Shown piece after piece: positions 22,501 to 53,001 of a stretch of 64,000 bases of DNA. The stretch spans positions 4,154,001-4,218,000 of the forward strand of contig NC_092673.1 of assembly GCF_964355755.1 (NCBI RefSeq), in the 5' to 3' direction. This DNA comes from Antedon mediterranea (Eukaryota > Animalia > Echinodermata). The notes below the pieces were generated by a model. It was not told the DNA's origin, made no database searches, and saw only the letters and a program-made list of their open reading frames with translations. Numbering within the stretch: the first letter of the stretch is position 1; every line of letters begins with the position of its first letter. The position numbers and the translations under genes were made by a program.

Positions 22501-25500
22501 GTTTACCATATTTTAGGTTTTGACTTGTCATGATTTTCTAAAATAAGTAGTTTTTTGAAGAAGTTTATTTTAAATGTTATCGTTAAATTTTCTCTTAAAC
22601 CATATAGCAGAACTTGACCTTTATTGATATTTAAACCGAAATTTATTTTTACAATTACAATTGGGATAAGTAACAATAAATTCCGTAACAATAAAGCCTA
22701 CTGTAATCTCTTTTCAAATCAAAAGATTCTTATTAACATTCCTTGATAAACAAAAGCTGATTTATTTCCAATGACAATCAATCCCTTAAACCCAAAATGG
22801 GCAAAACCACTTAGTCACTAAAAAATCAAGCAAAAAAGTATTTTGTAAACACTATAATTTATGGACGCTTGGCCTAATATTCTGTTTATATTACGTTCTG
22901 ACATGTTGACCAATCATATTTGATTTACGTGGCTGCGGTGTACCTCAACAGGAACATTTAAGGAAATTCTGAAATGTAGATTTTGGAGACTGATTAGTAA
23001 TATTCATTTTTGTGTGATCTTTGCTGCTGCATGAATGTCATTGGTGAATTCAAACAGAGGTAAAAGTAAAATTTATTTCTTTAGCACTCTACTCTTAAAG
23101 TTATTAAAACGTACTTAAAAAATCATACTTAAATTATTGCATTTATGGACTATTCCATTTTGAATTGAGCATGTGATAACTATAATAGAAGGATGATTAA
23201 TATGATCAGTATTTTTTATGTTTTTTGAATAAGAAGATTTTTTTGTTCAATAATAAATTAGTAATGTAAACAAACTAATATGATTTAGGTCAATATTTAA
23301 GAAGCCATCCTACTTAAGTGCTCTTAAAAATGTCCCGTACTTAGATTGCATCAAGTTGTTAGAAGAAGGAAATACTTAGTATCCTATATTTCATAACAAA
23401 CACGGATATTGGGTCAAATCCTGCTTAGATTCACCATTTCATAAAGGTACAACTTAGTATTTAGTTAGTATTATTCCATCAGCAACGAATCAAGATCACT
23501 AATAAAAGAACGTATATAAAGAAGATTCACCTACAAAATGCCAGGGAAACAATATCTAGAGGTCAAAGAATGTTCTAAACAAAAGAAGAACCACACTGCT
23601 GAAAAGAAGCTTATCAGCATTAATAGACGTGAGACGGCATTGGAAAGGATGGAGTATGATAGAAGAAACAGCTTGACCAATCACAAAAGTATTGAGAACA
23701 AACTGACTAGCAGAAGTGAGGACAAACTGACTAGCAGAAGTGATTCCTTAATCAACATTGATTCTAATTTGATTGCTAGTGTGTTGAAAACAAAGTTTGG
23801 ATTTGTATTTGATGGACAAACTAAAGTATTAGAAAAACTTGCTGATGAAGTTGCGGTATTGGTTCAAAATCAGGTAGTGAAAGAGGCATCTGCCGCCAGA
23901 GATGACGAGATAACTGGACGTCTTGATGAAATTCAACAAAGTGTTGATAAGATTTCTCATTCGTTGATTCAGACAAAGAATTTCGCGATAAAAAATGGTT
24001 TAAGAATAGATGAAATAGAAGATAGTTTAGGTAAGACAATTTTTGGAAACCTATCAATCAGCATTAGAAAAAGCGAAAGAGAATTTATCAAAAGGCTGAT
24101 GTCCGGAATTTTTCAACAAAAGGTGGTTTGTTGATATAAAGTTTGCGGTACACCACGTGTAGTTTTGAAAAGAACTGTTGAGTTTCTCGACATTTCGATC
24201 AATATGCTTTGATCGAAAGTTGGTTTGTCATCTCTCTTTTTATCAAAGCTAAATTTCAACTTGTTTGTTCTTTCAGGAGTACAACTTGATAATAAGAATA
24301 AGCCAACACCACCAAGAAGATCCACTGTAAAGGTACTGTAGTTTTCAATGTACTTATTCCACTATCATTGTCCTCGCCATCTTGTTACTGTATTCTTCTT
24401 CAATGTCAGTATCTTCATCATCAAAATGAATTTATCTATTGTCACCACCTTTTTCATTCTCAACACCATTATCCTCTCCACAATGTCATCTTTGCCTTTA
24501 ACACAAAGAAAAACTTTACATTCTTCATCCCTCTGTATTCATCTGTCAAGTCCATAGCCAGTACAGTTGGTAAGGGGTCAACCTGACCGCTTTTTCACAG
24601 AGGCTTGAACAGAGATTGTTCCCTTATCTTGCGAAAACCAGACCGCTTTATTTCTTGTGGCTATATCACTATTATTTAGTAAACATTCTGTGAGTAATAA
24701 TCTTTTCTATTATTTATAACTATGCTGTTTTGTTCACTTTAAAGAGATCACTTAAAGGCCGCAAATCTGGTGCAATAAGGAAAGGTGGTCGCTCTCCAAT
24801 GGACTACTACACAATAGCAGACTATGACAATCATGTAGGAGATGGAATCAGCTTCAAGAAAGGCCAACATGTTGAGGTACGTATTTCACTACAGGTAGTG
24901 AATTATAATTAGTAGTTTGAAACTCCTAAATTCAAATGATTTATACACACTCTACACACAAAAATGAGTAATTATTAGGGTGTGTGGCACAGTGTGTTGG
25001 ACGTTGGACTATTGTGAGGTTGTGTGTTTAAATTCAACGCATGTCGCATTGCTTGTGTCCTTGGGGAAGGCACTTTACTTATATTTGCCTCTCTCCGCCC
25101 AGGTGTACAAATGGGTACGTTTACTTTGCACTGGTTAGTATCTGCATTATGTGATTACGTTTCCATTTGCGTTTGATCCAAAAATGACCAGGGTAATATG
25201 TAAAGCGTTAGAAGTTTCATAACATTAGGCCCTTTAATCAAGGATTTTATTATTATAATAATTATATGGTATTTATAATTACTGTATTCCATTTGCTGAC
25301 ATTATTTAACAGGATATGGTTTTTAGTGTCACAAAACGAGTAGGTTATAGTTCATTGGGATATTCATTTGTGGCTTGATATCCTGTTTAAAAGGAACTCA
25401 AAAGTTGTATGGTCTGCTCAGATAAACCAGACAACAATATTTCAAGTGTTAAAAATTAAATTAGCTAATCTTTTTGTGTTTATATATTTTTACTGGATGT

Positions 25501-27110: not shown

Positions 27111-29614
27111 ATCATTCTGTTGTTTGGTTTCCTTGGTACTGTATACCTATATACTGTAGATTATAACTGATGCAAACATTTTTATTTGTACATGAAGAGA
27201 TAACCAAACATGGGCATTTTTTTACCAAGTTATATATTGCACTTAATGGGAACATACAATATCACAATCACTGAACTAGCCTGATTCATAGTACAGTATA
27301 TTGATATAAAGATCATTGTACAGTATCATGCAAGTCAAAAACATAGATGACCAATTATGGACATGTTGCTATTGTATATATATTGCAAGAACCTTTTTTT
27401 GATTTATGAGTTTAGGTAAAAAGATGTATATAAACATTTTTTGTTATTGATAATATTCTCATTATTGCCAAAATGTTATTTTTTATTTTTGTGCCTTTTA
27501 ACAGTCTATGCAAGTAATAAGCCTACTTTGTGGTTTAACAACAACATTCAGTCATGCGTAACATGACGGTGTAGACGCAATGGAAGTGAGTTGACCAATC
27601 ACAAGCAACAGCTTGGATGATCTGTTGCATCATGATTGGTCAAGTTAGAGACTTGAGTCCTTGTGTTGTATCCAAGTGGAAACCAAACTTAAGTAACCCG
27701 CATGAGTTCTAAGGAACTAAGAAATCTAGGAATATTTTTAGTTATTGTTTTATGATATACTAAACTACAGACATATTGAGGACCATGTAAAACTGTTTAA
27801 TACTTTTACATTTATTTATATATAGATTAACAATAATATTTTGCAAAGCCATATTTATAAATTTAATTTACTTAGATATTGTTATACAATTATTATTGCA
27901 CAAATGGGTAGTTGTTTTAAAAATCTTTATTTACATTCCTTTATAAATGCTGTATTTATTTAGTTTTTTTTAAAAATGTATTATTGCGTTGTTTACAATA
28001 AGTGGTACATTTATGTTATAGCCATATTCATATTTTGACAAATTGATTGATATTAACAAAATTGATAATAACAATAACAACATAAGAAAATATTATTTTA
28101 GTTATTTAGATAATGTCCAGGGATATGTTGATGTTCCAATGTTTATGGAATGCGGTGAGGGAATTTGTGTTTAATATAACAAACTTTGCAATTGTAGATT
28201 TATGTACAGTATTATTGAGAACCGAAATTTAAATTGTTTCCAGGAAAGAGTTTTCTGCGGTATTTAGCAATAAATTATATTTTTCATACCGACGTCAACA
28301 TGTATGAGTAAAGTTGTTGTAATCTTTGGTTTTGTTACGATTCTATCGACAGTAAATGTAGCTGGTATAGTGCCAGGGCCGTAGCCACCAGTAGCCTACC
28401 TGACCACTTTTTATGAACAGAAAGAGATTGTTTCATTTTCTTGCGAAAACCGAACCACTTTATTTCTTGTGGCTACTGATACCTAATTGTTACATAAATT
28501 TACCACAATGCTAAATAGCTCTATTGGTCTTGGAATGTGATGGGTGCCTTCGTTGAATTATTTTATAGACCGGAAGCAATACAGGTAATGTTTTTACATA
28601 AGTTTGTGATTCCCTATTTGTATAATAATAACCAACATGACAAAACTAATTAAATTCCCTGATAGCATGGAGTAACATTACATTTTTTTCCAATAAATGT
28701 GCTGCGTTTCCAAAGTTCAAATTTTAATATAAAATACTACTCTAATAATATTTTACCAGGGCTATTTATTAAAGATGTTTGTCTCCCAAAAACATGAAAA
28801 ATGAAGATTAATAAAATCTAGGCCATCTTGCAGTTTTAAAGTTATTCAATCCTGTTTAAAAAAAACCCAAAATAATAATTATTTTACTTATAAAAGAAAC
28901 GTTTAATTTTAAACAAAAACCATTGTCTGACAGAAAAGTTAGGTATTTTTTGTGTTAAATTACATTTTTTCTGGTTTTGGTCCAGTTTTTGGTTATTATT
29001 ACTATTATGTGATATTAAAAGGGAATATTAAAAAAAAATGTGTAGGGGGACCATATTATAATTATCTTTAATAATTATAATATTGCAGGTGGCCATCAGA
29101 GTATACATTAATTATTTATTGTTGCCATGGGGAAATCCAACGCTATTGACATGCGTAGTGCGATCCACACAAAAAGTAGACCTCTCAATTCCGTCGCCGT
29201 CGTGTACGTGTGTCGAATCAGCCAGGTGGTTAGATATAGGCCTAGGGCTAGCTAGCCTTCCTTGCCTACAATTATGAATAATTAGTTCAGCGAACAATTT
29301 TTTGCAAATATTGGCTGTTTAGCTATAATTACAAATGTTTTAGGGAGACGCCAAGCAAGTGTTTTAATCTATTTATGATAATAGTGTGAGTATTTATTGC
29401 CATTCATTTTTTAGGCTGGCCTTCAAGCCTTTTTTTAGCAGTAGCTAGGCCAGCAAGCTGAGCCCGGGCGGGGCTACACCCGCCTGACTCCCCCCCCCCC
29501 CCCTAGACTAGAGAGCCTAGCTAGGTAGGAGGATAGGCTTCCTTCTCCTTTACTAGCCTAGATGATATACTACTGAACTGTACTATGTCCTAGGACCTAG
29601 GCCTAGCTGTCATG

Positions 29615-31620
29615 GGATGCTAGTCAAGTCGCCCCATCGCAAAGTCGCCCCATACAAAGTCGCCCCTTACACAGTCGCCCCATCGCAAAGTCGCCCCAAA
29701 ACAAAGTCGCCCCGACACAGTCGCCCCATCGCAAAGTCGCCCCATCGCAAAGTCGCCCCAACGCAAAGTCGCCCCATCGCAAAGTCGCCCTAACACAAAG
29801 TCGCCCCAAAACGTTAAAAAAATAGTTTAAAAGTGCGTAAAATGTCGCAATGATACACAAAATAACACGGAACGTGTAGGCATAAAAGGGGAAGTCCCGC
29901 CATGTAGTCTCACAGGTCACATGATCATCCCCCATCATCATGAGAGGAAGCCCCCAACTAATCACTCCGCGCGCGGTCGCACTAACGTGCTAGCTCACCA
30001 CCGGAGGGAAACCCCCGTAATTACTCCGCCGTTGTCGCACTACCATACAACGCACCATCTGAAGATGGGGAAACCCCGCCGGAGTTTTACGATATCAGTC
30101 GCGTTCGAAATCGGTCGCGTTTAATTTTGGTCGCGATAAAATGATGTTATACGATCTAGATTATTTTTACTTTGGTCGATAAATATTTATTATTATCAGG
30201 TATATGATGAGAAAGATGTGTGCCTTCAAAAATGACAATTTGTAAACATAGTTTAAGATTATAGTATTATTCAGCATAATGTCATTTAACAGTACATAAT
30301 TATTTAAATGTGAAATATTTTATAGGGAACGTAGGCTACGTCTGTAACTTTTATTTTATATGCAACAAATTACGTAAAACAATTTATTTATAAACATTCA
30401 GTTTACTAATAGTATTACAATGAACATTGATTATAAGCCTGGAAAGGCAATCCCATCATTATATCCATTATAAAATTGCATCATATCACCACTATATGTC
30501 GTAAATGATGACGTGTGTGTATGTATTCGTCGTACGTCCGTGTACGTATTATTCCGTGCATCTTCACTGTCTTGTTTAATTTAAAATTAAATAAACACCC
30601 GATATGAGGATATTTATTAGGCATGAGATAATTAGAATGTTCTATAACCAAAAGGGTTGAAAAGAATTTCTTCAGTAAAATGATCATTCTGCTGTTGAAT
30701 ATAAAGCGACTCGCAATCTGAAACATTCTCTGAAACCAATCGGAGCTGCGCCTTCTGGTATCTGTTTCCTCACAGCTGCTACGACGTCTTTCTGCTGGCC
30801 GTCGGGGATTCCCCTTTTTAAAAAACACGCACACGATACGATGGTTTTCCATGGTCAAAATGTAGCGTACGATCATATCGGCGATGAAATCCTTTTTTTT
30901 TATTTCTTCATTTTGAAAAGTCATAATAAAATTAAATAACAACAGACACTTAACTTGTCAATAAATGCAAAGTGATCAATAAGTAGCCTATAACACTATT
31001 GTCTTACAACTACTATAAATCTATACGAAGGCCTACTACACATTTATATACTTATTATATTATCATAAAAAATGAGCTGGTAGGTTGAAGAAAGATTCGT
31101 AATTGTGGCTCTGGTAACTAATTTTAAAATCATATTAAATTAACATTTTCGAAACTATAAATCAGGGATAATCTTTTTAGAACTTTCAAACAAGGGACTG
31201 TTTTTTTAATGATTTCTAAAAAGCACATCACTCCATTAAAACCTGTAAAATAAAAATACAAATTATGTATATAATAGGATAAACATTATAATGTAGGCCT
31301 AGGCCTATACGACATTTAGCGCGACCAAAGTAACAACGCAATCGATATCAAACGCAACCGATATGATTAAAACAGCGTACTACTAGTAATAGCGGCGGCG
31401 CTTCATAGTCATACCGAAATAAAACCGTGGGCAACTTTGCGATAGGGCGACTTTGCGTTGGGGCGACTTTGCGATGGGGCGACTTTGCGATGGGGCGACT
31501 TTGTAATGGGGCGACTTTGCGATGGGGCGACTGTGCCGGGGCGACTTTGCGATGGGGCGACTTTGTATTGGGCGACTTTGTATGGGGCGACTTTGCGATG
31601 GGGCGACTTGACTGGATCCC
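29615..31620. mobile_element. Foldback-type DNA transposon (probably MULE/Mutator-derived, non-autonomous) with tandem-repeat TIRs
   Basis: Both ends are arrays of AAAGTCGCCCC(A) in inverted orientation. Termini are GGATGCTAGTCAAG / CTTGACTGGATCC. The flanking direct repeat is CTGTCATG (29607-29614, 31621-31628). A second inner inverted pair lies at about 30092-30143 / 31313-31362. Confidence 0.85.
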
Positions 31621-34900: not shown

Positions 34901-37032
34901 AAGATTTAATACCAGAGATTTACAAACTTGTTTTTGTTTTTTTCGTAGGCTTTTTTCTGGCATTCCGAAGCAACTGGAAATGGTAGTCTGGAATCTCAAG
35001 GTAAATATCCTTAATTGATTATCCGCACTTGGCTGATAACCCCTTGTTATTGTCAGGATCGTTGAAGTGACGAGTTCAAATCGAGTTTAGTTAGTATTAT
35101 ATTCTGGATTTGAGGAAAGTTTACTTTGATTTTAATTTAAAATAATACACATATTTTGTTTTTTATTTTTGAATTTTGAATTTGTTTTTTATATTGTTTG
35201 GAAGATTATACTATGCTTCAGTTTTCAATTTTGTTCCATTAAATTGTTATTTCTTGTGCACTGAGAACGACAATTATTAAACATTGTTATGTTGCTGGTG
35301 ATGTTTTAAATCTATCACTGAGCCATCATTTGAACTCATTGTTCTGCCACTGTGTGGGTATACGGTTGTAGCATAGAGATATTATCTCTATGGTTGTAGC
35401 AATGTAAATTTTGATATGTCTATATTCATGTAGGAGCCCTAGGTGTGATGTATGAGTTAGGCCTAGGATGTCACAAGAACCATGATTCTGCATTTGAATG
35501 TTTGAAGGAAGCATCTGAACGAGGCAACGTGTATGCCATGGCAAACCTAACAGCGCATTATTATGCTAAGAAGCTATACACAAAGGCAGCCGAGACCGCT
35601 GCTAGGTAAGTACTTCTACAGCACACACTCCCTTAGTGATGCTTAAAGGTGAAATAAGGAGGCAAAGGGTATTTACTCGTATAGGCTACCTCCTCTCATA
35701 GATGTGCAAGTCATATTTGTTTAACACTGCCTGCTATGATTAGCACCGTGGATTGAGTCAATAAACAGAAAAGAGCACCCAACATGGTTAATATTGATAC
35801 ACCATCTTTGTCTCTTACTGTTTCTAAACTGTTGCCACCACCCTTATTACAGAGTTGCTCAACTTAAAGACATTGAAGACATTTCAAGAAAGACGGATTG
35901 CTTACCAGTATTCATAGGTAAAGGCATTGCTATGGGCAGTTTCTACTATGCTAGGTGTCTTCATCTTGGACATGGTGTGCAAAAGGACAAAGACCTAGCA
36001 CAGACTTACTACAGCCAGGTATGTACTGTCATTTTAAATAAATGGAGAATTGTGTCCGGGAGGTATAACATAACAGCTCACTAATTTAATTATAATTCAC
36101 TAAAATAATTAACAAATTAGTTTTACTATGTTTTCCATTATGTTTTGGAATTGCAATCCTTCAGATTTTAACTCGGTGTTCCTTTAAAATTTATGAAGGG
36201 AGCCCTCTATTATTCTACTTTTACAAATCTTTAAATATGTAACCAGCATTTAAAGATGTATTGTCCCCCAAAAACATGAAAAATGAAGATTAATTAAATC
36301 AGACTTTGAATATGTTATTTTGTAGTTTTAATAAAGTTAATCACTTCCGTTAAAAAAAAATGAAAAAAAATAATGTTTTCACCTTTAAATTGACAAAATA
36401 AATGGTTAAATTCAACCAAAAACCCACTAGCTGGCAGCCAATTTGGCCATTTTTTGCTTTAAATTACAGTTTTTTCAGGTAAATACATTTTTTTTTTCAA
36501 ACCAATTTTTGGTCAAAGTGGGTAATTATTATGTTACATTAAAATGGAATATTCAACAACAATTTAGTTAAGAAATATTTTTTTCAGGGGGACAATACAT
36601 CTTTAAGCTGTATTTTAGTTTTATTCCAAAATAATAAATAGCTATCTTCTTTGTTTTCTACTCAATACTATCTCCACCTCTATTTACCAGCCTTATGCCT
36701 CTTATGTTTCTTTTCTTTTATTCCTGTCAACTCAGGCAGCGCTTGCCTGATATATCTATCTATCTTTGTCCAAGTACCTTCACTTGCACTGATGAAGGGC
36801 TAGTATTGCCCGAAAGATCTGCCAACTTTTCTGGCTGTTTTACTTTATCGTTTTGATTTTGCTTTTCGCTTTTTTTTTCATTGAGTATTTTTCCTTTGAA
36901 TTTATTTAAATTTTAATATATAGTGAGAACATTGTATAGTATTGTGTTTTATTTTATCCTATCCAGGCATTCAAATTCGATGGGAATACCACACAGATGC
37001 TACAGAACATGGTGACCCATGGAAAAATATAG
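31908..37032 (+). CDS. LRP2BP: LRP2-binding protein (Sel1-like repeats), 7 coding exons, about 364 aa
   Basis: Exons 31908-32183, 33799-33912, 34394-34642, 34949-35000, 35434-35605, 35853-36018, 36967-37032, in continuous phase. Motifs QFQLGVMYHDGLG, AERWWLLAANDGHPKASIKAQ, AFFWHSEATGNGSLESQGALG, ERGNVYA and TDCLPVFIGKGIAMGSFYYARCL match LRP2BP. Confidence 0.93.
32520..33531. mobile_element. Kolobok-like non-autonomous DNA transposon in LRP2BP intron 1
   Basis: TIR AGGAAAGGAACACCCT at both ends with TTAA duplication (32516-32519, 33532-33535). An internal decayed frame reads LEPEYTEREL...*QAVEEWCTFGQC. Confidence 0.8.
36254..36602. mobile_element. MITE family C (TIR AGATGTATTGTCCCC, TTAA flanks; Kolobok-like)
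   Basis: TTAA-AGATGTATTGTCCCC...GGGGACAATACATCT-TTAA. Related copies lie at about 28771-29057, 41888-42130 and 49758-50074. Confidence 0.8.
36783..36826 (+). ncRNA. Minimal hammerhead-ribozyme-like motif (Penelope retroelement type)
   Basis: CTGATGA-a-GGGC(TAGTATT)GCCC-GAAA-GATC-TG, preceded by a pyrimidine-rich tract and a hairpin. The cleavage triplet and stem I are atypical. Confidence 0.5.
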
Positions 37033-38199
37033 CTTAAATAATTGTATGCTGTGCCTTATAAAACAAATTCGGAAATATATAATTATATTTTATATAATAT
37101 AGTGCCTTGCTATGAAATTGACACAAATATAATGTTCGTAAACTTATTTATGTATAATATGTATATTTAATTTGATTATTTTGGTATTTTAAAGTGTTTT
37201 TATTTGTTGTTTTGAATTATAGATTGTAAATACAAATGTATGACTTTAAAAAGTGTAGAATGGTTTTTTTTTAAAGTTAAAAGTTTTTGTATTCACATCA
37301 TATTCATTAATAGATTTGTCATTTATGCCATCAACAATCAAGGCAAATTAACAAAAGGATGCTGAGCTCCGGCGATCAAAGGGTTTATCTGTGGCTGCAA
37401 CACAATCAGTTCCACGACCCTTAACAGCACCGCGCGACACAGAGAATGGGTACACGGTACAGTACTGTTAGTATTTGTTGCAGCCAGACATAAGATCAAA
37501 GGACTGTTACGAGTTCCTATCTTTGCCCAGTGTTCTGTTGTTAGATTGCCTTGCAACAATCATATTATCATGTTGTTAGTATCTTCATAATAATGATGTC
37601 ATCATCATCATCGTCATTATCATGTGTAAATCAGCCTAAATTTGTCATGGTACACTCTCATCACTTGCCCCAAGTCTGTATTTATTTTGAGGTTTTTCGA
37701 TGTTTGCACGTAGTATACGTATGAAACGCCGTATGTCCCAAAATATTTATCTTTTTACTAATAGTCAAAACTCCGTCTGGAACCCAGACTATCTCATCAC
37801 CTTTGAAGGTGCCTAAATTTTAGAATCATATCCGAGTAACTATCTTATCTCTGTGTTGGATACATGGATTTCCTAGGTAAAATATAAACCTGAAATATGG
37901 AGAGCCAAGGGTGAATAAACTCAAACCTACATAACTCAACTTTAAGGTCGTTGGCGTTAAAATAGACAATTAACAAAGTACTAACCCAATCATCATCCAA
38001 TCAAAATGCAGTATTAATGCAATTGTATGTAAATATACAGCTATACTAATCATTTTATGATAAACAGTTACATTTTATGAATGTGAGTGTACAATTTCTA
38101 ACTTTAACTATACTATACTATATCTGGGAAGAGTAAACTCTTTTCTGGTTTTAATGCTTTGGATCAATTCCTATCTCTCTCCATCTATCTATCTATCTT

Positions 38200-40840: not shown

Positions 40841-41064
40841 ATGTAATCATTTCGAGAGAGAGGGATTTTCCGTTATTGCTTTTAAGGTAAACATTATCGG
40901 TTGATTTTAGTATAAAAATGAGCGTGGTTTTACAAACTTCATTCATAACTTCATCGACGAGCATTGACTTACTTATTGTACTTCGAAGAGCAGAAGATAC
41001 CAGCGAACATCATACGTACAAGAAATTATTTACATTTACAAGAAATAACTATACTCAATATAAG
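40841..41064 (+). promoter_or_regulatory. Putative promoter and non-coding first exon of secreted gene A
   Basis: kB consensus GGGATTTTCC 40862-40871, TATAAAA 40911-40917, Inr-like TTCATTC at about 40939, and donor AAG|GTAACT at 41064/41065 joining the acceptor at 41538/41539 five nt before the ATG. Confidence 0.6.
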
Positions 41065-41543
41065 GTAACTATCGCAATATCTTGTCTATGCATTGTATCA
41101 TTTCTTTACGGTATTTAAACAAATAATAAAATGAAAACTTCACTGTTATTTGAAATACTGTATTTTCTAAATAAAATTCAATTTAAAAATTATGCCAATT
41201 GACTATTTATATGCATAGATTTTTTTTAAATACACTGTAGACCGATATGGGTTGGATTATTATTTTACTTATAATTCAATTGAAAATAATACCAATTGTT
41301 AAAATATATGTATGGATCTATATAGTTATTTTCAGGTGTAAAATTTTTTTTTTAATTCTGTAGTAACAAAGTCGTTTATTTAGGCCTAATAATTGTACAA
41401 TTATTTGTGTTTTAGTGATGATATTAAACTTGTATAAATCGGACATACTATGTGCATTATGTATGCAATAATACTAAATACATAATTCGAAATAAAAATA
41501 ATATATTAATATGATATATATTTTTTTACAATTTTCAGATACG

Positions 41544-43317
41544 ATGGCTCTTTTCAATATGACACACTGCATCATCAGTCTGCTGGGTGCATGCTTGTTA
41601 GTGGGTTCAATGCCTGTGTCCCCGACCACTGATGCTCCAATCCAGCTAAACAACGTCGATGACGCTAAAACGGCTGCCGAGAGATGGGAAAGAAATATTT
41701 ACGATTTCTATACAAGTTATGTAAGTCAATAATTTAATGTTTACTAACTAAATCTTAAATCGTAACTAGCCTATGTGCAAGATTGTATAATACAAAAGAC
41801 AAATGTAAAATTTAAACCATAGAAAAAAGAGTGAACTTTAATTTTAAAGATGGATGTACTCCTACAAAAGATTTTAAAAAAAACATTAAAGATATTTTGT
41901 CCCCTAAAAAATTTATATTTTGTCACCCTAAAAAATATATATTTTTAAAAATGCCAATTTTTAATGTCACATAATAGTTATTCACTTTGACCAAAAACTG
42001 GATCGAACAAAAAATGATTTAATGTAATTTAAAGCAAATAAATATTTAAATTGTCTGACGGACAGTGGTTTTTTGGTTAAAATTAACCGTTTTTTTTGTC
42101 TTTTTATAAGTGAAATCATTATTTTGTTTAATTTAACATTGTGATTTGCCAACAGATAAACAATCATACCGCCCTCTCTGCAACCTCTATCCAAAGTAAT
42201 AACATCTCCAAGCGTGTCGATGACTGTATCCTTCAATACAGGACAACCGCTCAGGTAAGATATACAATGTTTTTACATCTTTGCTCACCTTAGAATTATA
42301 CCGCTTTCACAATAAAGGCAAAACTCGGAAACACGCTCAGGTGTTTTGGTGTGAAAGGGGCCCAAGGAGTTTTGCACACTAAACTGCAAGGAACCCACGT
42401 TCATTGTAATTGTGTCTCATAATCGAATACGTTCTCGTTTGGCCCGGTTGCTCTCACTACATTTTAGAAAATAGCATATATATTGATTGTTTCCAATTCA
42501 TTGAGAATAATTTGCTTGTGTTTGTTTTTTAACAGAGTAATTTGGAAACACGTCTGGTAACATTGGTCAAATACTCGGTTAACATCACAACCCTGATCTA
42601 CATTGATGCTTACACAAGAACCACACTGTCCAATCTTGACAAAACAATGGAAAAGTTTGTAAGTTTTTATCACTAATTCTTCTTACCCTCATCTAATATT
42701 CTCATATAATTCCGTAACTTTCCTAATGAATATATACGATTACGAGTTTGTAAGGCTCCATAAGTAACGTTTCTTAGTAATATAATAACTATGTAACTAA
42801 CATTTTATTATTTATTTTAATTTTCCCAGCTTAAAGAAGACAACGTTAGTGTCTGTAACGTCATTGATGATGAACTTGCACCGCCGCTGTGTTTCGAGTC
42901 CTTTGAGGTACGTATTCTTATAAATAACTAAATATGAATAACTCCAGTGCCGTATAACGGCTATGTTACGGCTATGAGCGCTCACTGGCTAAACCCAGGG
43001 GCCCCTGAGTTTATGGTGCCTCAGACCTTATGGGTCACCTGAGAAGTGCCCAGAGGGCCGGGAAAACAGACATTAAAATATGTCGAAAAGGCTAAAAATG
43101 ACCGAGGCCTCAGGTATCTGCGTTACGCCACTTCTCGGACTCCTATCCATCTATAGCCCACAATGACAATTAAGGCCTATGTTTAATTTTATTGCAGACT
43201 GCCGTAGCTGAAGTAAAACAAAAATCGGAGCCCCTTGCTGTTGCATACTCTCTGCATATGCTACGAAGTGCCGCCGATGCCGTGTACAAACTAACCAGCT
43301 CATCTCAACTTTGTTAA
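41544..43317 (+). CDS. Novel secreted protein A (198 aa), candidate helical cytokine; 5 coding exons, all introns phase 0
   Basis: Exons 41544-41720 (177 nt; MALFNMTHCIISLLGACLLVGS signal + MPVSPTTDAPIQLNNVDDAKTAAERWERNIYDFYTSY), 42156-42254 (99), 42536-42658 (123), 42830-42907 (78), 43198-43317 (120, ends ...YSLHMLRSAADAVYKLTSSSQLC*). Splice sites are strong GT-AG and there are no stops. Gene structure is well supported; function is inferred. Confidence 0.85.
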
Positions 43318-44564
43318 AACGTATGGCATACTATATTGTAGACATAATATTCTATTTAAGATTATAAATTATTATATTTGTGGTAATTAAAGCATATTAT
43401 ATATGTATATATATATTTTTTAAATTCAGTGATACCATGGATACAACCATAATTTACGTGCGCGTGCAAACGATGTTAGGTGTTATCAGATTTTGAACAC
43501 GCACGTCAAATTTCGGTCTATTCGATGCATCACTGACATACGCTTGCATCAAGCGCACAACTAATTACAAACTATTTCTAGCTGCTCCCAACACAAACAC
43601 GTTTATTTGGACGTATTACGAAACATTTGCTCTGGTGCACCAATATACAAAAGGAACTAACCATTATTAGATGATTTTATCACGTATTGATAATTTGAAT
43701 GAATAACATAACATATAATAGCTACGTAATATGTACTTTTAAAACGATAATTGAAATAGTAGGCCTATAAAATATAAAATTATATAAGTTCCAATATTTA
43801 TACCATTTATTTGTTAATAATATTAACTATATATATCTGTATGTGTATATCCGTTAATGGATAATATACAGCGTTGAAGAAACTAGTACTCTATATTAGA
43901 CATGCGCAGTAGATCATACTGATCACGTATTTGTCGTATTTTCACGGCACGAGGTAATGTTTGCTGCCCAACGTTATGTTATATTGTTGTTGATATATAT
44001 TTGTCAGTTAGCGTTCTTTTTCTCAAAATCATGTTTTCATAGAGGTTCATAGCGGCAGTACTTTTGAGCTTCAAGTATTGTTTGTTATTTAGGACAAAAA
44101 TTCTTTTTCACATCGTCTAGCAAAACTCGGAGTCGAAAAAAAACCTACACACACCACCGGGCGTTTTGCAAGTTGTATGGAAAGTTTCCAGAGTTTTGCT
44201 AAACAATGTAAAAAAGATGTGCGTTGTTTTGTGTATCTGATTATGATCGGATTGATTGCTTTTTTGTTCTGTAATTATTATACTATTAAACAAACAAACA
44301 CTAGTATCATAATTGTTAGCTTAAAATTAGTTAAAATATATAAAGAAAGCTGAATATTATAGAGCTGCTGTGTTAATATTATTTAAATATTTTGCGATGT
44401 TGTCAGTCGCCTTGCATTTGATATTCATTGTTTAACTTGGCCTCGGTTAAATAAAATCATGTAAAATATATGTTGCCTTTTAAAAATCTTTTATTTTGTT
44501 TTGCTACAGATATTTTTTTCACCCAGAGTAGGAGTTTTTTAGGAATTAAATTATTAAAAACATA

Positions 44565-47473
44565 TAACCATAACATGCGCAGACCACATTATGTGATTCT
44601 GCGTATGTTACATTATTATATAGTAACCAGTTATGTTAAACACAAGTTTTTTTAAATGCAATTATTATGCGATAAAATTGCTCTATATGATCATATATTG
44701 CTTTATCATCATCTTATAGTACCATAGACACTTGTTATCACGACAAATAAAAGTGTCGAAAATTGGCCATTTTTGAAAAAATTCCTGTACTATAGTAAAG
44801 GGATTTTTTCGAAAAATGGCCAAAATATCAAGTTTTTTAAATTAAATTATTATGCGATAAAATTGCTCTATATGATCATATATTGGTTTATTATCATCTT
44901 ATAGTACCATTAGACATCTGTTATGTAACCACTTTTGACATAAATGGTTACTATAGCATAATAAACATGCGCAGAGTCGAATAATGGATTCTGCGCATGT
45001 CGATTGTGCTATAGTAACCATTTATGTCAAATATGGTTATGATAGCACAATTGATGCGCAGAACCCATTATTCGTCTCTGCGCATGTTTATTATGCAATA
45101 GTAACCATTTATGTCAAAAAATAAGGGGGTCGGAAATCGGCCATTTTTCAAAAGTTTCCCTGTACTATAGTACAGGGATTTGTTCAAAAAAATGGCAAAT
45201 TTTCGACCTATTTATTTTTCGATAAAACTGGTTACTATAGCACAATTAACATGCGCAGAACCCATTAGTCGACACTGCGCATGTTTATTATGCTATAGTA
45301 ACCATTTATGTCAAAAGTAAATGGTTATGATAGCACAATTGACATGCGCAGAACCCATTATTCGACTCTGCGCATGTTTATTATGCAATAGTAACCATTT
45401 ATGTCAAAAAATAAAAGGGTCGAAAATCGGCCATTTTTCAAAAATTTTCCTGTACTGTAGTACAGGGATTTTTCCAAAAAAATGGCCAATTTTCGACCTT
45501 TTTATTTTTCGATAAAACTGGTTACTATAGCACAATTAACATGCGCAGAACCCATTAGTCGACTCTGCGCATGTTTATTATGCTATAGTAACCATTTATG
45601 TCAAAAGTAACCACTTTAGACATAAATGGTTACTATAGCATAATAAACATGCGCAGAGTCGAATAATGGGTTCTGCGCATGTTAATTGTGCTATAGTAAC
45701 CATTTATGTCAAATATGGTTATGATAGCACAATTGACATGCGCAGAACCCATTAGTCGACTCTGCGCATGTTTATTATGCTATAGTAACCATTTATGTCA
45801 AAAGTAAATGGTTATGATAGCACAATTGACATGCGCAGAACCCATTATTCGACTCTGCGCATGTTTATTATGCAATAGTAACCATTTATGTCAAAAAATA
45901 AAAGGGTCGAAAATCGGCCATTTTTCAAAAATTTTCCTGTACTATAGTACAGGGATTTTTCCAAAAAAATGGCCAATTTTCGACCTTTTTATTTTTCGAT
46001 AAAACTGGTTACTATAGCACAATTAACATGCGCAGAACCCATTAGTCGACTCTGCGCATGTTTATTATGCTATAGTAACCATTTATGTCAAAAGTAACCA
46101 CTTTAGACATAAATGGTTACTATAGCATAATAAACATGCGCAGAGTCGAATAATAGGTTCTGCGCATGTTAATTGTGCTATAGTAACCATTTATATCAAA
46201 TATGGTTATGATAGCACAATTGACATGCGCAGAACCCATTATTGGACTCTGCGCATGTTTATTATGCAATAGTAACCGTTTATGTCAAAAAATAAGAGGG
46301 TCGGAAATCGGCCATTTTATGAAAATTTTCCTGTACTATAGTACAGGGATTTTTCAAAAAAATGGCCAATTTTCGACCTTTTTATTTTTCGATAAAACTG
46401 GTTACTATAGCACAATTGACATGCGCAGAACCCATTATTCGACTCTGCGCATGTTTATTATGCTATAGTAACCATTTATGTCAAAAGTGGTTCAAATATG
46501 GTTATGATAGCACAATTAACATGCGCAGAACCCATTATTCGACTCTGCGCATGTTTATTATGCTATAGTAACCATTTATGTCAAAAGTGGTTCAAATATG
46601 GTTATGATAGCACAATTAACATGCGCAGAACCCATTATTCGTCTCTGCGGATGTTTATTATGCAATAGTAACCATTTATGTCAAAAGTGGTTCAAATATG
46701 GTTATGATAGCACAATTGACATGCGCAGAACCCATTATTGGACTCTGCGCATGTTTATTATGCAATAGTAACCGTTTATGTCAAAAAATAAGAGGGTCGG
46801 AAATCGGCCATTTTTCGAAAATTTTTCTGTACTATAGTACAGGGATTTGTTAAAAAAAATGGCAAATTTTCGACCTTTTTATTTTTCGATAAAACTGGTT
46901 ACTATAGCTCAATTAACATGCGCAGAACCCATTAGTCGACTCTGCGCATGTTTATTATGGTATAGTAACCATTTATGTCAAAAGTAAATGGTTATGATAG
47001 CACAATTGACATGCGCAGAACCCATTATTCGACTCTGCGCATGTTTATTATGCAATAGTAACCATTTATGTCAAAAAATAAAAGGGTCGAAAATCGGCCA
47101 TTTTTCAAAAATTTTCCTGTACTATAGTACAGGGATTTTTTCAAAAAAATGGCCAATTTTCGACCTTTTTATTTTTCGATAAAACTGGTTACTATAGCAC
47201 AATTAACATGCCAGAACCCATTAGTCGACTCTGCGCATGTTTATTATGCTATAGTAACCATTTATGTCAAAAGTAACCACTTTAGACATAAATGGTTACT
47301 ATAGCATAATAAACATGCGCAGAGTTGAATAATGGGTTCTGCGCATGTCAATTGTGCTATAGTAACCATTTATGTCAAATATGGTTATGATAGCACAATT
47401 GACATGCTCTGAACCCATTATTCGTCTCTGCGCATGTTTATTATGCAATAGTAACCATTTATGTCAAAAAATA
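44565..47473. repeat. Complex higher-order satellite built from two hairpin/palindromic monomers in both orientations
   Basis: Monomer X is about 90 bp (TGGTTA..ATAGCACAATT.ACATGCGCAGAACCCATTATTCGACTCTGCGCATG..TAGTAACCA). Monomer Y is about 105 bp and palindromic, centred on GTACTATAGTAC. The higher-order period is 487 bp between 45321 and 45808. Confidence 0.92.
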
Positions 47474-47929
47474 AGCATATTGATCTAAACGTCGAGAAAC
47501 TCAACAGTTCTTTTCAGAATATGTGGTGTACTGCAAACTTTATAACAACAATATCATACTTGTTTGAAGTAATACTTACAATTAAATAGATTAATTTTGT
47601 TACTACAAATTATTTCTCATAAACGTCAGTAATAATGAGTGACGTATTTCCTTTTTACTTTTAATATAAAAATAATGCATATTTCTCTGCAAGGATGTTT
47701 ACTATAAGGTGGGTGTTAATATTAAAATATGATTCAATGACATAATTTTATACATCGTAAAATATATTCGTGTAATTTAAATTTTATTGAAGATAAATAT
47801 TGTGAAATACCATACTAGATTTCACTCTCAGCATTGTCAACCCTCTACCCACTCCCCAGTCACAATTGAATTGAGGGGTTGTTGGAAGTTCGCAAAATGA
47901 TGAGATACTGGTACTTATTTGAATGGGTT

Positions 47930-48951: not shown

Positions 48952-50389
48952 CACATCTGTTTAAATGAAGTATTAAAGTATTGAAAGATGTCAACAACAA
49001 TACACTCTTTATTGAATAAACCGAATCAGCGACGGTAAATGAAATATTTAAAAAAACATTAAAATATAACATACATACAAACGTGCATTTACTGACAATG
49101 TCGTCATGTGTAAATAAATTAATTTAAAACAAAAAATATGCTTTATTACCGAAAAATCCAATTGTAAAACGAATCTAAAAATACATTTAAACTTCGGTGT
49201 CTTTAGGAAAAATATATAGTCATAAAAAATCAAATTGTCAAAATAAATCGATATAGGCCCATTGCTACTAAATAATTATATAGTATAAGTATAATCTATA
49301 GTTATTGCACTATTACTTTCGACTACGGGTTATAATCAGGTAAATAATAAACCACCCACACTTCAATATGAAATAAAGAGAACGTTTAAATTAAACAAAA
49401 AAGAAAGTTGTTCTCAGGACATAAAATGATAATTGCTTAAGTCCAAATTGCAAAAACAAATCAATTAATAAAACCATCATCATAGAACTGTTACATAATA
49501 TAAATGTATTTTGTTTGTTACCATTTCCCATTGTAATTATTTTTAAAGAAATTAGGCCTATATATTATTTCAAAATATTTGGTGTATATAAACACAAACT
49601 GAACAGAGCAAACAACAAACATTGTTTACGAGTGAATGCGACTCATCATCAATCATTTGAATAATTATTTATTAATTAATTTATAACAGGTAGGTAACTG
49701 TTTACTATTTTCTGCATAATAAATAGTATACTGTATAAAATAGTCTTAATTTAAATTTAAAGATATATTGTCCCCCTAAAAAAATATTTTGTTACAAATT
49801 TGTTGTAGAATATGTAATTTGAATTTCACATAATAGTTATTCACTTTGATAAAAAATCGGATCAAAAATGATTTCCCAGAAAAAAATAAAATAAATAGTC
49901 AAATTGGTTGAATTTAACTGTTTATTTTGTCATTTTATAAGTGAAAACATTATTTTTTTCATTTTTTTTTCCTATGGAATGTGATCAACTTTGTTAAAAC
50001 TACAAAAATTGCCTATTCAAGTCTGATTTTATTAATCTTCATTTTTCATGTTTTTCGGAGAAAATACATCTTTAAGTTTGGTTTCCTTGGACGCGACGCA
50101 AGTACTTTAAAGCACCGCAATTTGACCAATCACAAGCGATGAAGCATCCGAACTGTCGATTATGATAGGTCAACTCACTTGCGTTGCGCGTCTACCCTCG
50201 TTGCGTCGCTTCCAAGTGGGAACCCCGCTTTAAGAAAAGCAATGCAATATCTATTATGGTCACTATGGAGGCAAATCGACTGACGATGTGTCTATGAAAC
50301 ACTGGAAAAAAGAATGGATGTTTTTTTTTTGAATTAGTGGCTTAGATGGCTTAGTAAACATATTATTATTGAGAGGGTTACACCCTACT

Positions 50390-50494: not shown

Positions 50495-50606
50495 CAACAC
50501 ACCAATAGACATACAAATTTACACATTGTCTTCTATTAATCAAAAATTGCAAAATTAAACATTGTTTCGTCTCTACTTCAGATATTTTAGTTTTTCCGAG
50601 AAAAAA

Positions 50607-53001
50607 ATGTTTTTACAGCTGGTATGTGTGCTAGTATTTGCATTGTCTGCATCTTCAAAGCCAATAAGTTCGTGTAGTCTCAGTGAAGGAGACTATTGGT
50701 TGACAAAACTCGATCAACTACACCAGTCATTAAGCAGTGAAGTAAGTAACTAATTAGGCCTGTGTGTGTAAGTTTAGTTACTGACATTATATATAAATAA
50801 TAATACTGTCAAATTATTGATACAATGCTCATATTCGGAACATGATCTCATAATCGCGTCGAGCATAGCTCATCGGCGAAAGTTCCGTATGTTTCAGTTG
50901 TATTAAAAATGTCTGGCGGGATTCGAACATGCGACCTCTCGCTTTACAGGGCGAGTATCATACCGTTAGACCACAGGAGAGCCATATACGGCATTATTAC
51001 AGATCTTCAACCACCATATACATTCTCTTATACAACAAACGACAGGTTTAATTTGTCTCTGTTGTGGTAGATAATGGCGGACACGTGAAATTCCTGCACT
51101 TTTAGGATTTAGACTAAGAATAGATAAGTCAAATAGCGATTTTAATTCGGGTTAAAACAAAATGTCTCGACATGAAACAATACAATTATATATTATATAT
51201 CTTTATATGTGCGATCTCGAATTTATGTCGTCGTGACGGGTAGGCACGCGCGCTCGCCTGCAACAAGCATCGTTGTCGATAAAAAAAACATTGTTTCTTA
51301 AATATTTTTGATTTCATTACAGAGGAACTGTGCTCCTCCTCCATGTGAGTTTGACTTGGATTCTTTTAATCAAACACCACAGGTAAGCATTTTGGCTGAT
51401 AATTTTAATTTACCAACATATAATAAATAAAAAACACTATTCTCCGAATATGTGGTGCATTCTATTTTAAGTTTTAAAAAAATGATCTCTACTATAAAAT
51501 AAAACTGTTAAGCATACGACTGTATATAATATTTTAAAATAATTGGGGTTTTTTCATCAACAGGAATCGGCGTACAGACAAACGGTTAACTTCGTTAAAA
51601 ACACAAACGACGTATTTAGCAGTTGGTTCAATCAATCGCAAACTTCTCGAAGTATAGGCAACTCATTGCAATCACTGGAAAGTCAAGTAAGAATTATGTC
51701 ATTCAGTTTCTTGTTAATATAATAGCATTAAGCCAAAATGTTTTCCTCTATCTCCTCCTAAGCTGCAAGTCCGATACTAGCGCCGTTCGAGTTGGGGCAC
51801 CTTTTAATTCCCTTTGTCCATTAAGCCGTAAAACGGAAAATGTGTACCAAAAATGTGTTATTTAGACCAATTACTTTGAAACTGCCGAATACTGCGGTAA
51901 TTCTCGGCTATTTTCATACGTCACAATTAAGTCACTCATGTCATTAGCAATATCGAGACAGCAGCACATGTGACATGTGTACTATATTACTGTATACTAT
52001 CTGTTTGATTTCCGAACATTAACATCATTATAAGATGGTGCCCGTCCATTGGTACGGCTTAGTTGAAATTTAAATGTTTTTTTTTCTTTCTGAAGCTACG
52101 GAATGCGCCTTCAAATTGTATTCAAACGGGAACGACGGCCACAGATATACAAGATAGTTTTACGGTATGTTTCACACATCTGAAAACTTTTTTTTATAGC
52201 ATTAAAGCTTGGTTCCCACTAGGACGTAACGCAAGGACGTAAACGCAACGCAAGCGTTTTAACCAATGACAAGCGAAGTTATAGACAGTTAGCAATCACA
52301 AGCGAATAAGTCATCGCTTGTGATTGGTCAATTCACTTGCGTTGCGTTACGTCCTTGTGTTGCGTCGCTAGTGGGAACCACGTTTTAAGCTTGGTTCCCA
52401 CTAGAACGTAACGCAAGGACGTAAACGCAACGCATGCGTTTTAACCAATGACAAGCGAAGTTATAGACAGTTGGCAATCACAAGCGAATAAGTCATCGCT
52501 TGTGATTGGTCAATTCACTTGCGTTGCGTTACGTCCTTGTGTTGCGTCGCTAGTGGGAACTAGAACGTAACGCAAGGACGTAAACGCAACGCATGCGTTT
52601 TAACCAATGACAAACGAAGTTATAGACAGTTAGCAATCACAAGAGAATAAGCCATCGCTTGTGATTGGTCAATTCACTTGCGTTGCGTTACGTCCTTGTG
52701 TTGCATCGCTAGTGGGAACCACGCTCTTGAAGTACCATCTCACGTACACAGAGATAAGCATTGTGCAAATTTCTGCAACAATTTGCGAAGTTATCATGGT
52801 CATTTTGTAGGCATTATGCGTGTAAACTGTAAAGTCAAGTTATCATTGATTGAAATTCATGTATTTATCAAAAATAATAATCCTTTTAATAAATGTTGTT
52901 TGTTACAGTGTATACAAAACATGACGGTAACTGAACTAGGCTGCATCATGAGAACACAACTTCGAGTGATAAAACGATTGGTTTTCAATGTTATACCGTA
53001 A
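50607..53001 (+). CDS. Novel secreted protein B (159 aa), candidate helical cytokine; 5 coding exons, all introns phase 0
   Basis: Exons 50607-50741 (135 nt; MFLQLVCVLVFALSASS signal + KPISSCSLSEGDYWLTKLDQLHQSLSSE), 51323-51382 (60; RNCAPPPCEFDLDSFNQTPQ), 51564-51686 (123), 52096-52164 (69; LRNAPSNCIQTGTTATDIQDSFT), 52909-53001 (93; CIQNMTVTELGCIMRTQLRVIKRLVFNVIP*). Splice sites are GT-AG and there are six mature Cys. Function is inferred. Confidence 0.85.
50911..50980 (-). mobile_element. tRNA-derived SINE head or tRNA pseudogene in gene B intron 1
   Basis: Minus strand TGGTCTAACGG (A-box), CTCGC..GCGAG stem and GTTCGAATCCCG (B-box); the acceptor stem is poor. Confidence 0.6.
52206..52724. 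mobile_element. Three head-to-tail copies of MITE family B in gene B intron 4
   Basis: Near-identical palindromic units of about 165-180 bp start at about 52206, 52388 and 52560; the third lacks the outer left TIR. Confidence 0.9.

Follow-up and report, generated by a model that had tools for sequence, protein, structure and literature searches.

Five coding exons separated by introns that split no codon are described for all six genes of the IL-10 family, for IFNL1, IL-3 and IL-21 (PMC2654155) and for the type I interferons (IFNs) of fish (PMC4929537). IL-10 itself has this five-exon, phase-0 layout (PMC12652433) and carries signature motifs (PMC4338397). Helical cytokine sequences are poorly conserved even between orthologs (PMC3894449; PMC4690019), and IL-10/IFN-type cytokines typically show very little conservation of sequence (PMC2654155). 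Here, we describe two genes with the same layout, A and B, located in tandem in a 64-kb stretch of the genome of the crinoid Antedon mediterranea (NC_092673.1, positions 4,154,001 to 4,218,000 of the forward strand). The whole stretch is referred to as the window, and coordinates are positions within it. In our view, the two genes are rather probably a fast-evolving pair of secreted helical cytokines. The cytokine reading of gene A, put forward in a preliminary description of the sequence, is partly supported: it gains from the phase-0 introns, from a tandem gene of the same design and from kB- and STAT-type motifs.

Intron phases have been used as a filter in lamprey, where 132 genes were 0-0-0-0, 14 of these had a signal peptide and fewer than 300 residues, and the single helical one was an IFN (bioRxiv 10.64898/2026.05.30.728932). 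The same preprint, of June 2026, reports IFNs in lancelets and places the origin of interferons there; Foldseek on predicted models of two sea urchins and of a tunicate gave no IFN (bioRxiv 10.64898/2026.05.30.728932). Two class I receptors are described in Ciona (PMC1963337). For sea urchin, one source lists an IL6R/gp130-like receptor and states that ligands were not found in most invertebrates (PMC13203501), and an older paper describes the urchin as having no apparent cytokine receptor system (PMC3296744). By these two sources, echinoderms have at most a receptor and a cytokine ligand is so far unreported (PMC13203501; PMC3296744). Gamma-chain cytokines are described as confined to jawed vertebrates (PMC9465101).

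Two tandem genes of the same design

Gene A (41544-43317, plus strand) has five coding exons of 59, 33, 41, 26 and 39 codons and encodes 198 residues (Table 1). Its introns measure 435, 281, 171 and 290 nt; all four have GT-AG borders and all four are phase 0. This five-exon model, proposed in the preliminary description, is confirmed. It is reproduced by the reading of frames and splice sites and by the NCBI model XP_071949046.1 (Antedon mediterranea, “uncharacterized”, 209 aa), residues 12-209 of which are identical to the gene A protein. The 11 additional N-terminal residues of the NCBI model correspond to DNA directly upstream of a probable splice acceptor. The exon that this acceptor opens starts at 41539, 5 nt ahead of the ATG. 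The 209-residue start was rejected because it reads through this acceptor. The upstream donor, at 41065, scores 4.1 bits and the acceptor 2.7 bits.

A blind splice-chain search between 37.2 and 44.5 kb, using an approximate splice matrix and length windows chosen with the answer known, returned the exact gene A chain at 26.1 bits, compared with at most 14.1 bits in 100 local shuffles. When the length windows were widened, the search favoured a different last exon (44510-44542) and unrelated chains reached 25.3 bits. This other exon was rejected, as it has 10 codons and contains no helix. Since the wider search prefers it, support for exon 5 of gene A comes from the NCBI model and from the coding character of exon 5. 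In run X2, which is DNA-like, positions 42181 and 42238 differ within exon 2 (A68V and Y87F). Among the X2 differences listed, both of those in gene A exons change the amino acid. This is in line with fast evolution; two changes are too few for a selection test.

Gene B (50607-53001) follows gene A on the same strand after 7.3 kb. It appears to be unannotated, as no database protein matched its exon 3. It encodes 159 residues in coding exons of 135, 60, 123, 69 and 93 nt, and all its introns are phase 0. Its splice chain reaches 35.6 bits, compared with at most 11.4 bits in 100 shuffles of the region, and is the top chain of the entire window. Genes A and B have in common a signal peptide, five exons, 0-0-0-0 phases and a third exon of 41 codons, which is devoid of cysteine in both. 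In both genes, an intron is probably present just before the ATG.

Ungapped alignment of exon 3 of the two genes was equalled by 24 of 2000 shuffles, and alignment of all exons together by 190 of 2000. The hydrophobicity profiles of the two third exons correlate with r 0.35 (66 of 5000 shuffles), and equally well at a shift of -1. BLASTP of gene B exon 3 against gene A gave no alignment, and tblastn of the gene A protein on the 64-kb window gave no paralog. Sequence homology between A and B is marginal. The common exon design suggests that gene B is likely an old paralog of gene A.

A short repeat is common to the first coding intron of gene A (41886-42134) and to the 5' side of gene B (49757-49964), with 77-87% identity. 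To judge from its high contig depth, it is more likely a repeat spread through the genome than a trace of the duplication. The region between the two genes contains a ca 3 kb palindromic and tandem array (44500-47480) whose very high summed contig depth indicates a high-copy repeat. The last intron of gene B (52200-52750) holds several copies of a short, very-high-copy repeat, a related copy of which is located around 50070-50230.

Predicted secreted and mostly helical proteins

The preliminary description saw in the gene A product a glycoprotein with four mature cysteines, one of them C-terminal, and four sequons. The positions could be read directly: cysteines 83, 142, 154 and 198, the latter being the last residue, and mature sequons at 62, 75, 108 and 138. 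Cysteines 9 and 17 belong to the signal region, and one more sequon, at 5, is within the signal peptide. Signal peptides and membrane stretches were judged from hydropathy alone. The signal peptide of gene A has a hydrophobic core at 9-20 (mean Kyte-Doolittle value 2.83) and no membrane-length stretch follows (best 19-mer, 1.21). In gene B, the core spans residues 2-13, the best later 19-mer reaches 0.81, and the protein has six mature cysteines and three sequons.

Two single-sequence AlphaFold2 models of the gene A protein, one for the full-length and one for the mature chain, have predicted local distance difference test (pLDDT) values of 41.0 and 41.9. The ESM Atlas model has a pLDDT of 0.39. 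In the mature-chain model, six helices are predicted (38-62, 73-90, 95-118, 126-135, 158-165 and 171-193); the short helix 158-165, spanning the border of exons 4 and 5, is present in both AlphaFold models. Together, hydropathy, sequons and these low-confidence models support the description of the gene A product as a secreted, mostly helical orphan glycoprotein.

The four amphipathic segments named in the preliminary description had been picked by eye, which makes the following shuffle figures optimistic. Three of the segments held (1, 17 and 90 of 2000 shuffles were as amphipathic) and the segment 95-113 did not (476 of 2000). Exons 2 and 4 had been described as long loops. This agrees for the most part with exon 4 and disagrees with exon 2, for which both models give helix 73-90. 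When the best amphipathic 15-mer of each exon was considered, 4, 108, 97, 331 and 8 of 500 shuffles were as good for exons 1 to 5 of gene A, and 30, 354, 30, 106 and 3 of 500 for those of gene B. Exons 2 and 4 of gene B are non-amphipathic and have a low helix propensity. In both genes, exons 1 and 5 thus exceed the shuffles and exons 2 and 4 do not; the predicted helices fall where they are expected for a cytokine, and the pattern by exon fits in part the four-helix bundle of class I.

Table 1 Features of genes A and B and of their flanks (window coordinates)
Feature	Position	Strand	Description
Gene A, coding exon 1	41544..41720	+	Signal peptide, then first amphipathic helix (38-62)
Gene A, exon 2	42156..42254	+	Two-sequon loop, then predicted helix 73-90 bearing Cys83
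Gene A, exon 3	42536..42658	+	41 codons; predicted helices 95-118 and 126-135
Gene A, exon 4	42830..42907	+	Loop, Cys142 and Cys154; helix propensity lowest among the five exons
Gene A, exon 5	43198..43317	+	Last helix 171-193, terminal Cys198, stop
Gene A, probable non-coding first exon	40940..41064	+	Start approximate; donor GT at 41065
Putative poly(A)-like signal ATTAAA, nearest after gene A	43386..43391	+
Gene B, coding exon 1	50607..50741	+	Signal peptide, first helix, Cys7 and Cys23; acceptor at 50582, 25 nt before ATG
Gene B, exon 2	51323..51382	+	20 codons, Pro-rich loop, Cys48 and Cys53
Gene B, exon 3	51564..51686	+	41 codons, the length of gene A exon 3
Gene B, exon 4	52096..52164	+	23 codons, loop, Cys114; acceptor ends AAG
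Gene B, exon 5	52909..53001	+	Cys130, Cys141, strongly amphipathic last helix, stop
Consensus NF-kB (kB) site	40862..40871	+	Perfect match; 40 nt upstream of TATA-like box
TATA-like box 5' of gene A	40911..40917	+	One among several in an AT-rich stretch
GAS-like (STAT) consensus sites at gene B	49873..49881 and 50594-50602	+	Upstream of gene B

Sequence searches

The preliminary description recognised no family for gene A, and database searches agree with it: no relative was found in 5.8 billion proteins, in Pfam or in PDB. Pfam returned no family either for the gene A protein or for any of the ten single exons of genes A and B, and PDB sequences gave no match to the gene A protein at E 10. 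Among 1.84 billion representatives, the protein matches itself alone. The same result was obtained with 124 word-sharing candidates from 5.8 billion proteins, and the 90% cluster of the protein has no other member. With gene A exon 1 as query, one of eight candidates matched, and this was its own NCBI model. With gene B exon 3, none of four candidate database proteins matched at E 0.01. Since cytokine orthologs diverge strongly, the absence of homologs costs the cytokine reading little.

Comparison with known cytokines

Both genes show the five coding exons, separated by four introns of phase 0, of class II cytokines. Both proteins have a signal peptide, fewer than 300 residues and no membrane anchor. 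In the lamprey filter, gene A comes through at each step, namely phase, size, signal peptide and helix content, the last one on the basis of low-confidence models. Gene B passes the phase, size and signal-peptide steps and is helical by pattern alone. The published figures, which come from one genome, suggest that the full filter has a low false-positive rate. Class II cytokines (the IL-10 family, IFN-lambda, the intron-containing type I IFNs of fish and the IFNs of lamprey and lancelet) resemble A and B in their length of ca 160-200 residues, signal peptide, five exons, 0-0-0-0 phases, helical character (predicted in A and B), tandem arrangement and very weak sequence conservation. IFNL2/3 have an extra upstream exon (PMC2654155), and so, probably, has gene A, where it would be non-coding. 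A and B differ from class II cytokines in that they have no sequence or profile match and lack the IL-10 and CAWE motifs, and their host is not a chordate. The best agreement in A and B with the IL-10 signature and CAWE motifs is at 5 of 10, 5 of 9 and 2 of 4 positions, and with the LxTP motif of IL-2/15/21 at 2 of 3 positions. As the vertebrate motifs are absent, A and B cannot be assigned to IL-10, fish group II IFN or IL-2/15/21. The missing IL-10 and CAWE motifs bear on IL-10 and group II IFN proper, and mean little for distant class II relatives.

Short-chain class I cytokines such as IL-3 and IL-21 also have five exons without split codons (PMC2654155). The IL-3/IL-21 layout, in which phase-0 introns separate helix A, a loop, helices B and C, a second loop and helix D, is found in A and B with their predicted helices. 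The cysteine order of gene A (one preceding the second core helix, a pair in the last long loop, one C-terminal) is presumably similar to that of GM-CSF. We take that of gene B (one where helix A begins, a pair in the first loop, one behind the third helix and a pair ca 11 residues apart in the last exon) to resemble IL-7. Exon 3 of class II genes has ca 48-51 codons; with 41 codons, that of A and B is shorter and close to GM-CSF, IL-5 and IL-7. The coding exons of human IL-10 (165, 60, 153, 66 and 93 nt) are similar in size to those of gene B. Typical short-chain cytokines are shorter than the mature chain of gene A (ca 170-175 residues) and have a first helix shorter than its ca 25 residues. 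In overall length and in the length of the first and last helices, gene A resembles Unpaired of insects and the long-chain cytokines of class I (IL-6, G-CSF, IL-11), and a receptor of the IL6R/gp130 kind is reported in sea urchin (PMC13203501), but gene A has no sequence or fold match with these cytokines. Genes of long-chain class I cytokines usually begin with a tiny coding exon and a phase-1 intron, and their last loop continues into the last helix uninterrupted by an intron.

Regulatory motifs

The kB site and the TATA-like box form a candidate inducible promoter of gene A, a role proposed from sequence. When the 300 nt preceding the TATA-like box were shuffled 1000 times, such a kB site arose in 1 shuffle; for the 2 kb before the ATG it arose in 15 of 1000. 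Upstream of gene B, no kB consensus is observed. Two GAS-like sites are located within 2 kb at gene B (4 of 1000 shuffles; nine such sites in the whole window), and six ATTTA motifs follow its stop codon within 400 nt (23 of 1000). After gene A, ATTTA is not in excess (771 of 1000 shuffles). These shuffle tests and their windows were selected after the motifs had been seen, and the motifs are to be taken as leads. An excess of kB matches in the whole window (12, with 1.57 expected) was rejected as support, as four of the six places are within one transposon-like element.

Proposed function and alternative explanations

If genes A and B encode cytokines, an immune stimulus could activate them briefly through NF-kB (A) or STAT (B). 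The proteins would be secreted, N-glycosylated and held by two (A) or three (B) disulfides. The helices of exons 1, 3 (two) and 5 would build the core of four helices that class I and class II share, and exons 2 and 4 would provide long connections that may bear two accessory helices. The ligand would then join two receptor chains of the fibronectin type III (FNIII) kind, leading to JAK-STAT signalling.

Several results weigh against this interpretation. The preliminary description had proposed an up-up-down-down four-helix bundle; the low-confidence models give six helices instead, with no cytokine match, and pack the first three as an antiparallel bundle. The structures that match these models at the highest ranks are antiparallel three-helix bundles of a generic kind, and none of the cytokine motifs scored (IL-10 signature, CAWE, LxTP) is present in A or B. 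A crinoid-specific secreted helical protein with another function (for example lipid-binding, antimicrobial, pheromone or matrix) is the main rival, a possible, although not a probable, explanation: it would form a simple up-down bundle, and the phase-0 layout would have arisen by chance or through a single local duplication. In a Foldseek search of PDB with the full-length model, apolipophorin-III is on top, but with an E value of 0.18, a template modelling (TM) score of 0.37 and a root mean square deviation of 10. The nearest ESM Atlas features belong to unnamed arthropod proteins and to a “venom protein” cluster (0.83-0.86); all feature matches are below the bar of 0.9, leaving no usable named cluster, and all structure rows have TM scores below 0.5. 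CNTF (rank 36, E 3.1) and prolactin (rank 18, E 3.2) are found by Foldseek at noise level. No match at E 0.001 was obtained in PDB or among viral models, and two VIA-align runs with the same low-confidence models gave no cytokine among the best 50 entries. An IL-23 entry in VIA-align was discarded, the matched chain of 81 residues being by its size the designed binder and not the cytokine. However, the fold matches come from models with pLDDT values of ca 41 and are within the range common for helical bundles; as the models are poor, missing fold matches say little. Moreover, A and B are too divergent to align and still keep five exons, 0-0-0-0 phases and a 41-codon exon 3, which fits an old constrained architecture, and exons 2 and 4 of gene B suit long crossover loops better than they suit an up-down bundle.

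Within the cytokine interpretation, we leave the class open and lean slightly towards short-chain class I because of the 41-codon exon 3, the presumed likeness of the cysteine orders and the presumed orthologs in the gene neighbourhood. A short-chain class I-like ligand (IL-3/IL-21/GM-CSF/IL-7 type) is accordingly a tentative assignment, and a long-chain one is improbable. A class II-like ligand of the IL-10/interferon type, which we regard as doubtful, would have helices A-F; exon 2 would encode B, exon 3 both C and D, and exon 5 helix F, while E would span the border of exons 4 and 5. The mature-chain model, at low confidence, yields six helices in the matching exon order, and such a six-helix reading may be no worse a fit to the layout of class II than to the four helices of class I. 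The exon sizes of gene B, which resemble those of human IL-10, point the same way. On the other hand, the IL-10 and CAWE motifs are absent, exon 3 is short and nearer to GM-CSF, IL-5 and IL-7, and the flanking genes would belong to the block of IL-2/21/15 and IL-3/4/5/13/GM-CSF. By phase, size and signal peptide, genes A and B come through the filter with which lamprey and lancelet IFNs were found, but that preprint reports none outside chordates (bioRxiv 10.64898/2026.05.30.728932).

It is very unlikely that either gene, or the pair, is silent or in decay, or that gene B is a wrongly assembled chain of chance exons. The lack of a database protein for gene B exon 3 and the two amino-acid changes seen in run X2 would agree with this idea. 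Conversely, the frames are intact across five exons in both genes, with canonical GT-AG borders, and NCBI models the same gene A exons although no homolog was found to guide it. The gene B chain stands far above its 100 shuffles. G+C content is higher in gene A exons (0.37-0.47) than in two of its introns (0.23 and 0.26), the other two being at 0.37 and 0.45.

The chances are about even that A and B truly belong to the lineage of phase-0 helical cytokines, as echinoderm members of an interferon/IL-10-like or a short-chain interleukin-like type, and that a tandem cluster wired to NF-kB and STAT already existed in the deuterostome ancestor. If true, this would contradict an origin of interferons in basal chordates and an origin of gamma-chain-type cytokines in jawed vertebrates. 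The new element is the all-phase-0 tandem pair in an echinoderm. A literature search, with most subscription journals beyond its reach, found nothing on genes A and B or on a crinoid helical cytokine. Structure screens could miss gene A because they need good single-sequence models and gene A yields poor ones. With a candidate ligand pair from a crinoid, it becomes possible to test directly how interferon/interleukin signalling originated.

Genomic context

Three genes flank the pair. One contains SH3 repeats and matches SH3PXD2A/NCF1 domains. Another, with Sel1 repeats, was identified by Pfam and is presumably LRP2BP-like. The third, on the minus strand, is ENTPD4/7-like (E 4e-32 to ENTPD4). 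We take the human orthologs to be SH3PXD2 (5q35/10q24), LRP2BP (4q35) and ENTPD4/7 (8p21/10q24). The 4q/5q/8p/10q paralogous block holds the IL-2/IL-21/IL-15 and IL-3/4/5/13/GM-CSF clusters, and is not known to hold the IL-10 and IFNG loci. The locus between the LRP2BP-like and ENTPD4/7-like genes is the place to look in other echinoderms, hemichordates and lancelets.

None of the sequencing runs listed is registered as RNA. A spliced LRP2BP-like contig in run X1 (35432-37124, depth 63, two GT..AG joints) shows that this run contains RNA. The contigs of this single run, from which silence is not demonstrable, include no spliced joint for gene A. Gene A is represented by unspliced pieces at depth 4.4-5.5, comparable to the intergenic depth of 2.6-4.5.

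Inside the span of the SH3PXD2-like gene, a 204-codon open frame (23520-24134) is coiled-coil-like and has sub-threshold Pfam rows; it is possibly a remnant of a mobile element. The element that holds four of the six kB-consensus places of the window (29613-31620) resembles a non-autonomous DNA transposon. Its internal minus-strand frame has a weak Pfam row, DUF4668, at E 0.024, below the cut-off. The element has 185-nt inverted arms made of tandem units of ca 16 nt, 88% complementary, and 9-nt flanks that agree at eight of nine positions. From these arms and flanks, it is presumably of the Mutator/foldback type.
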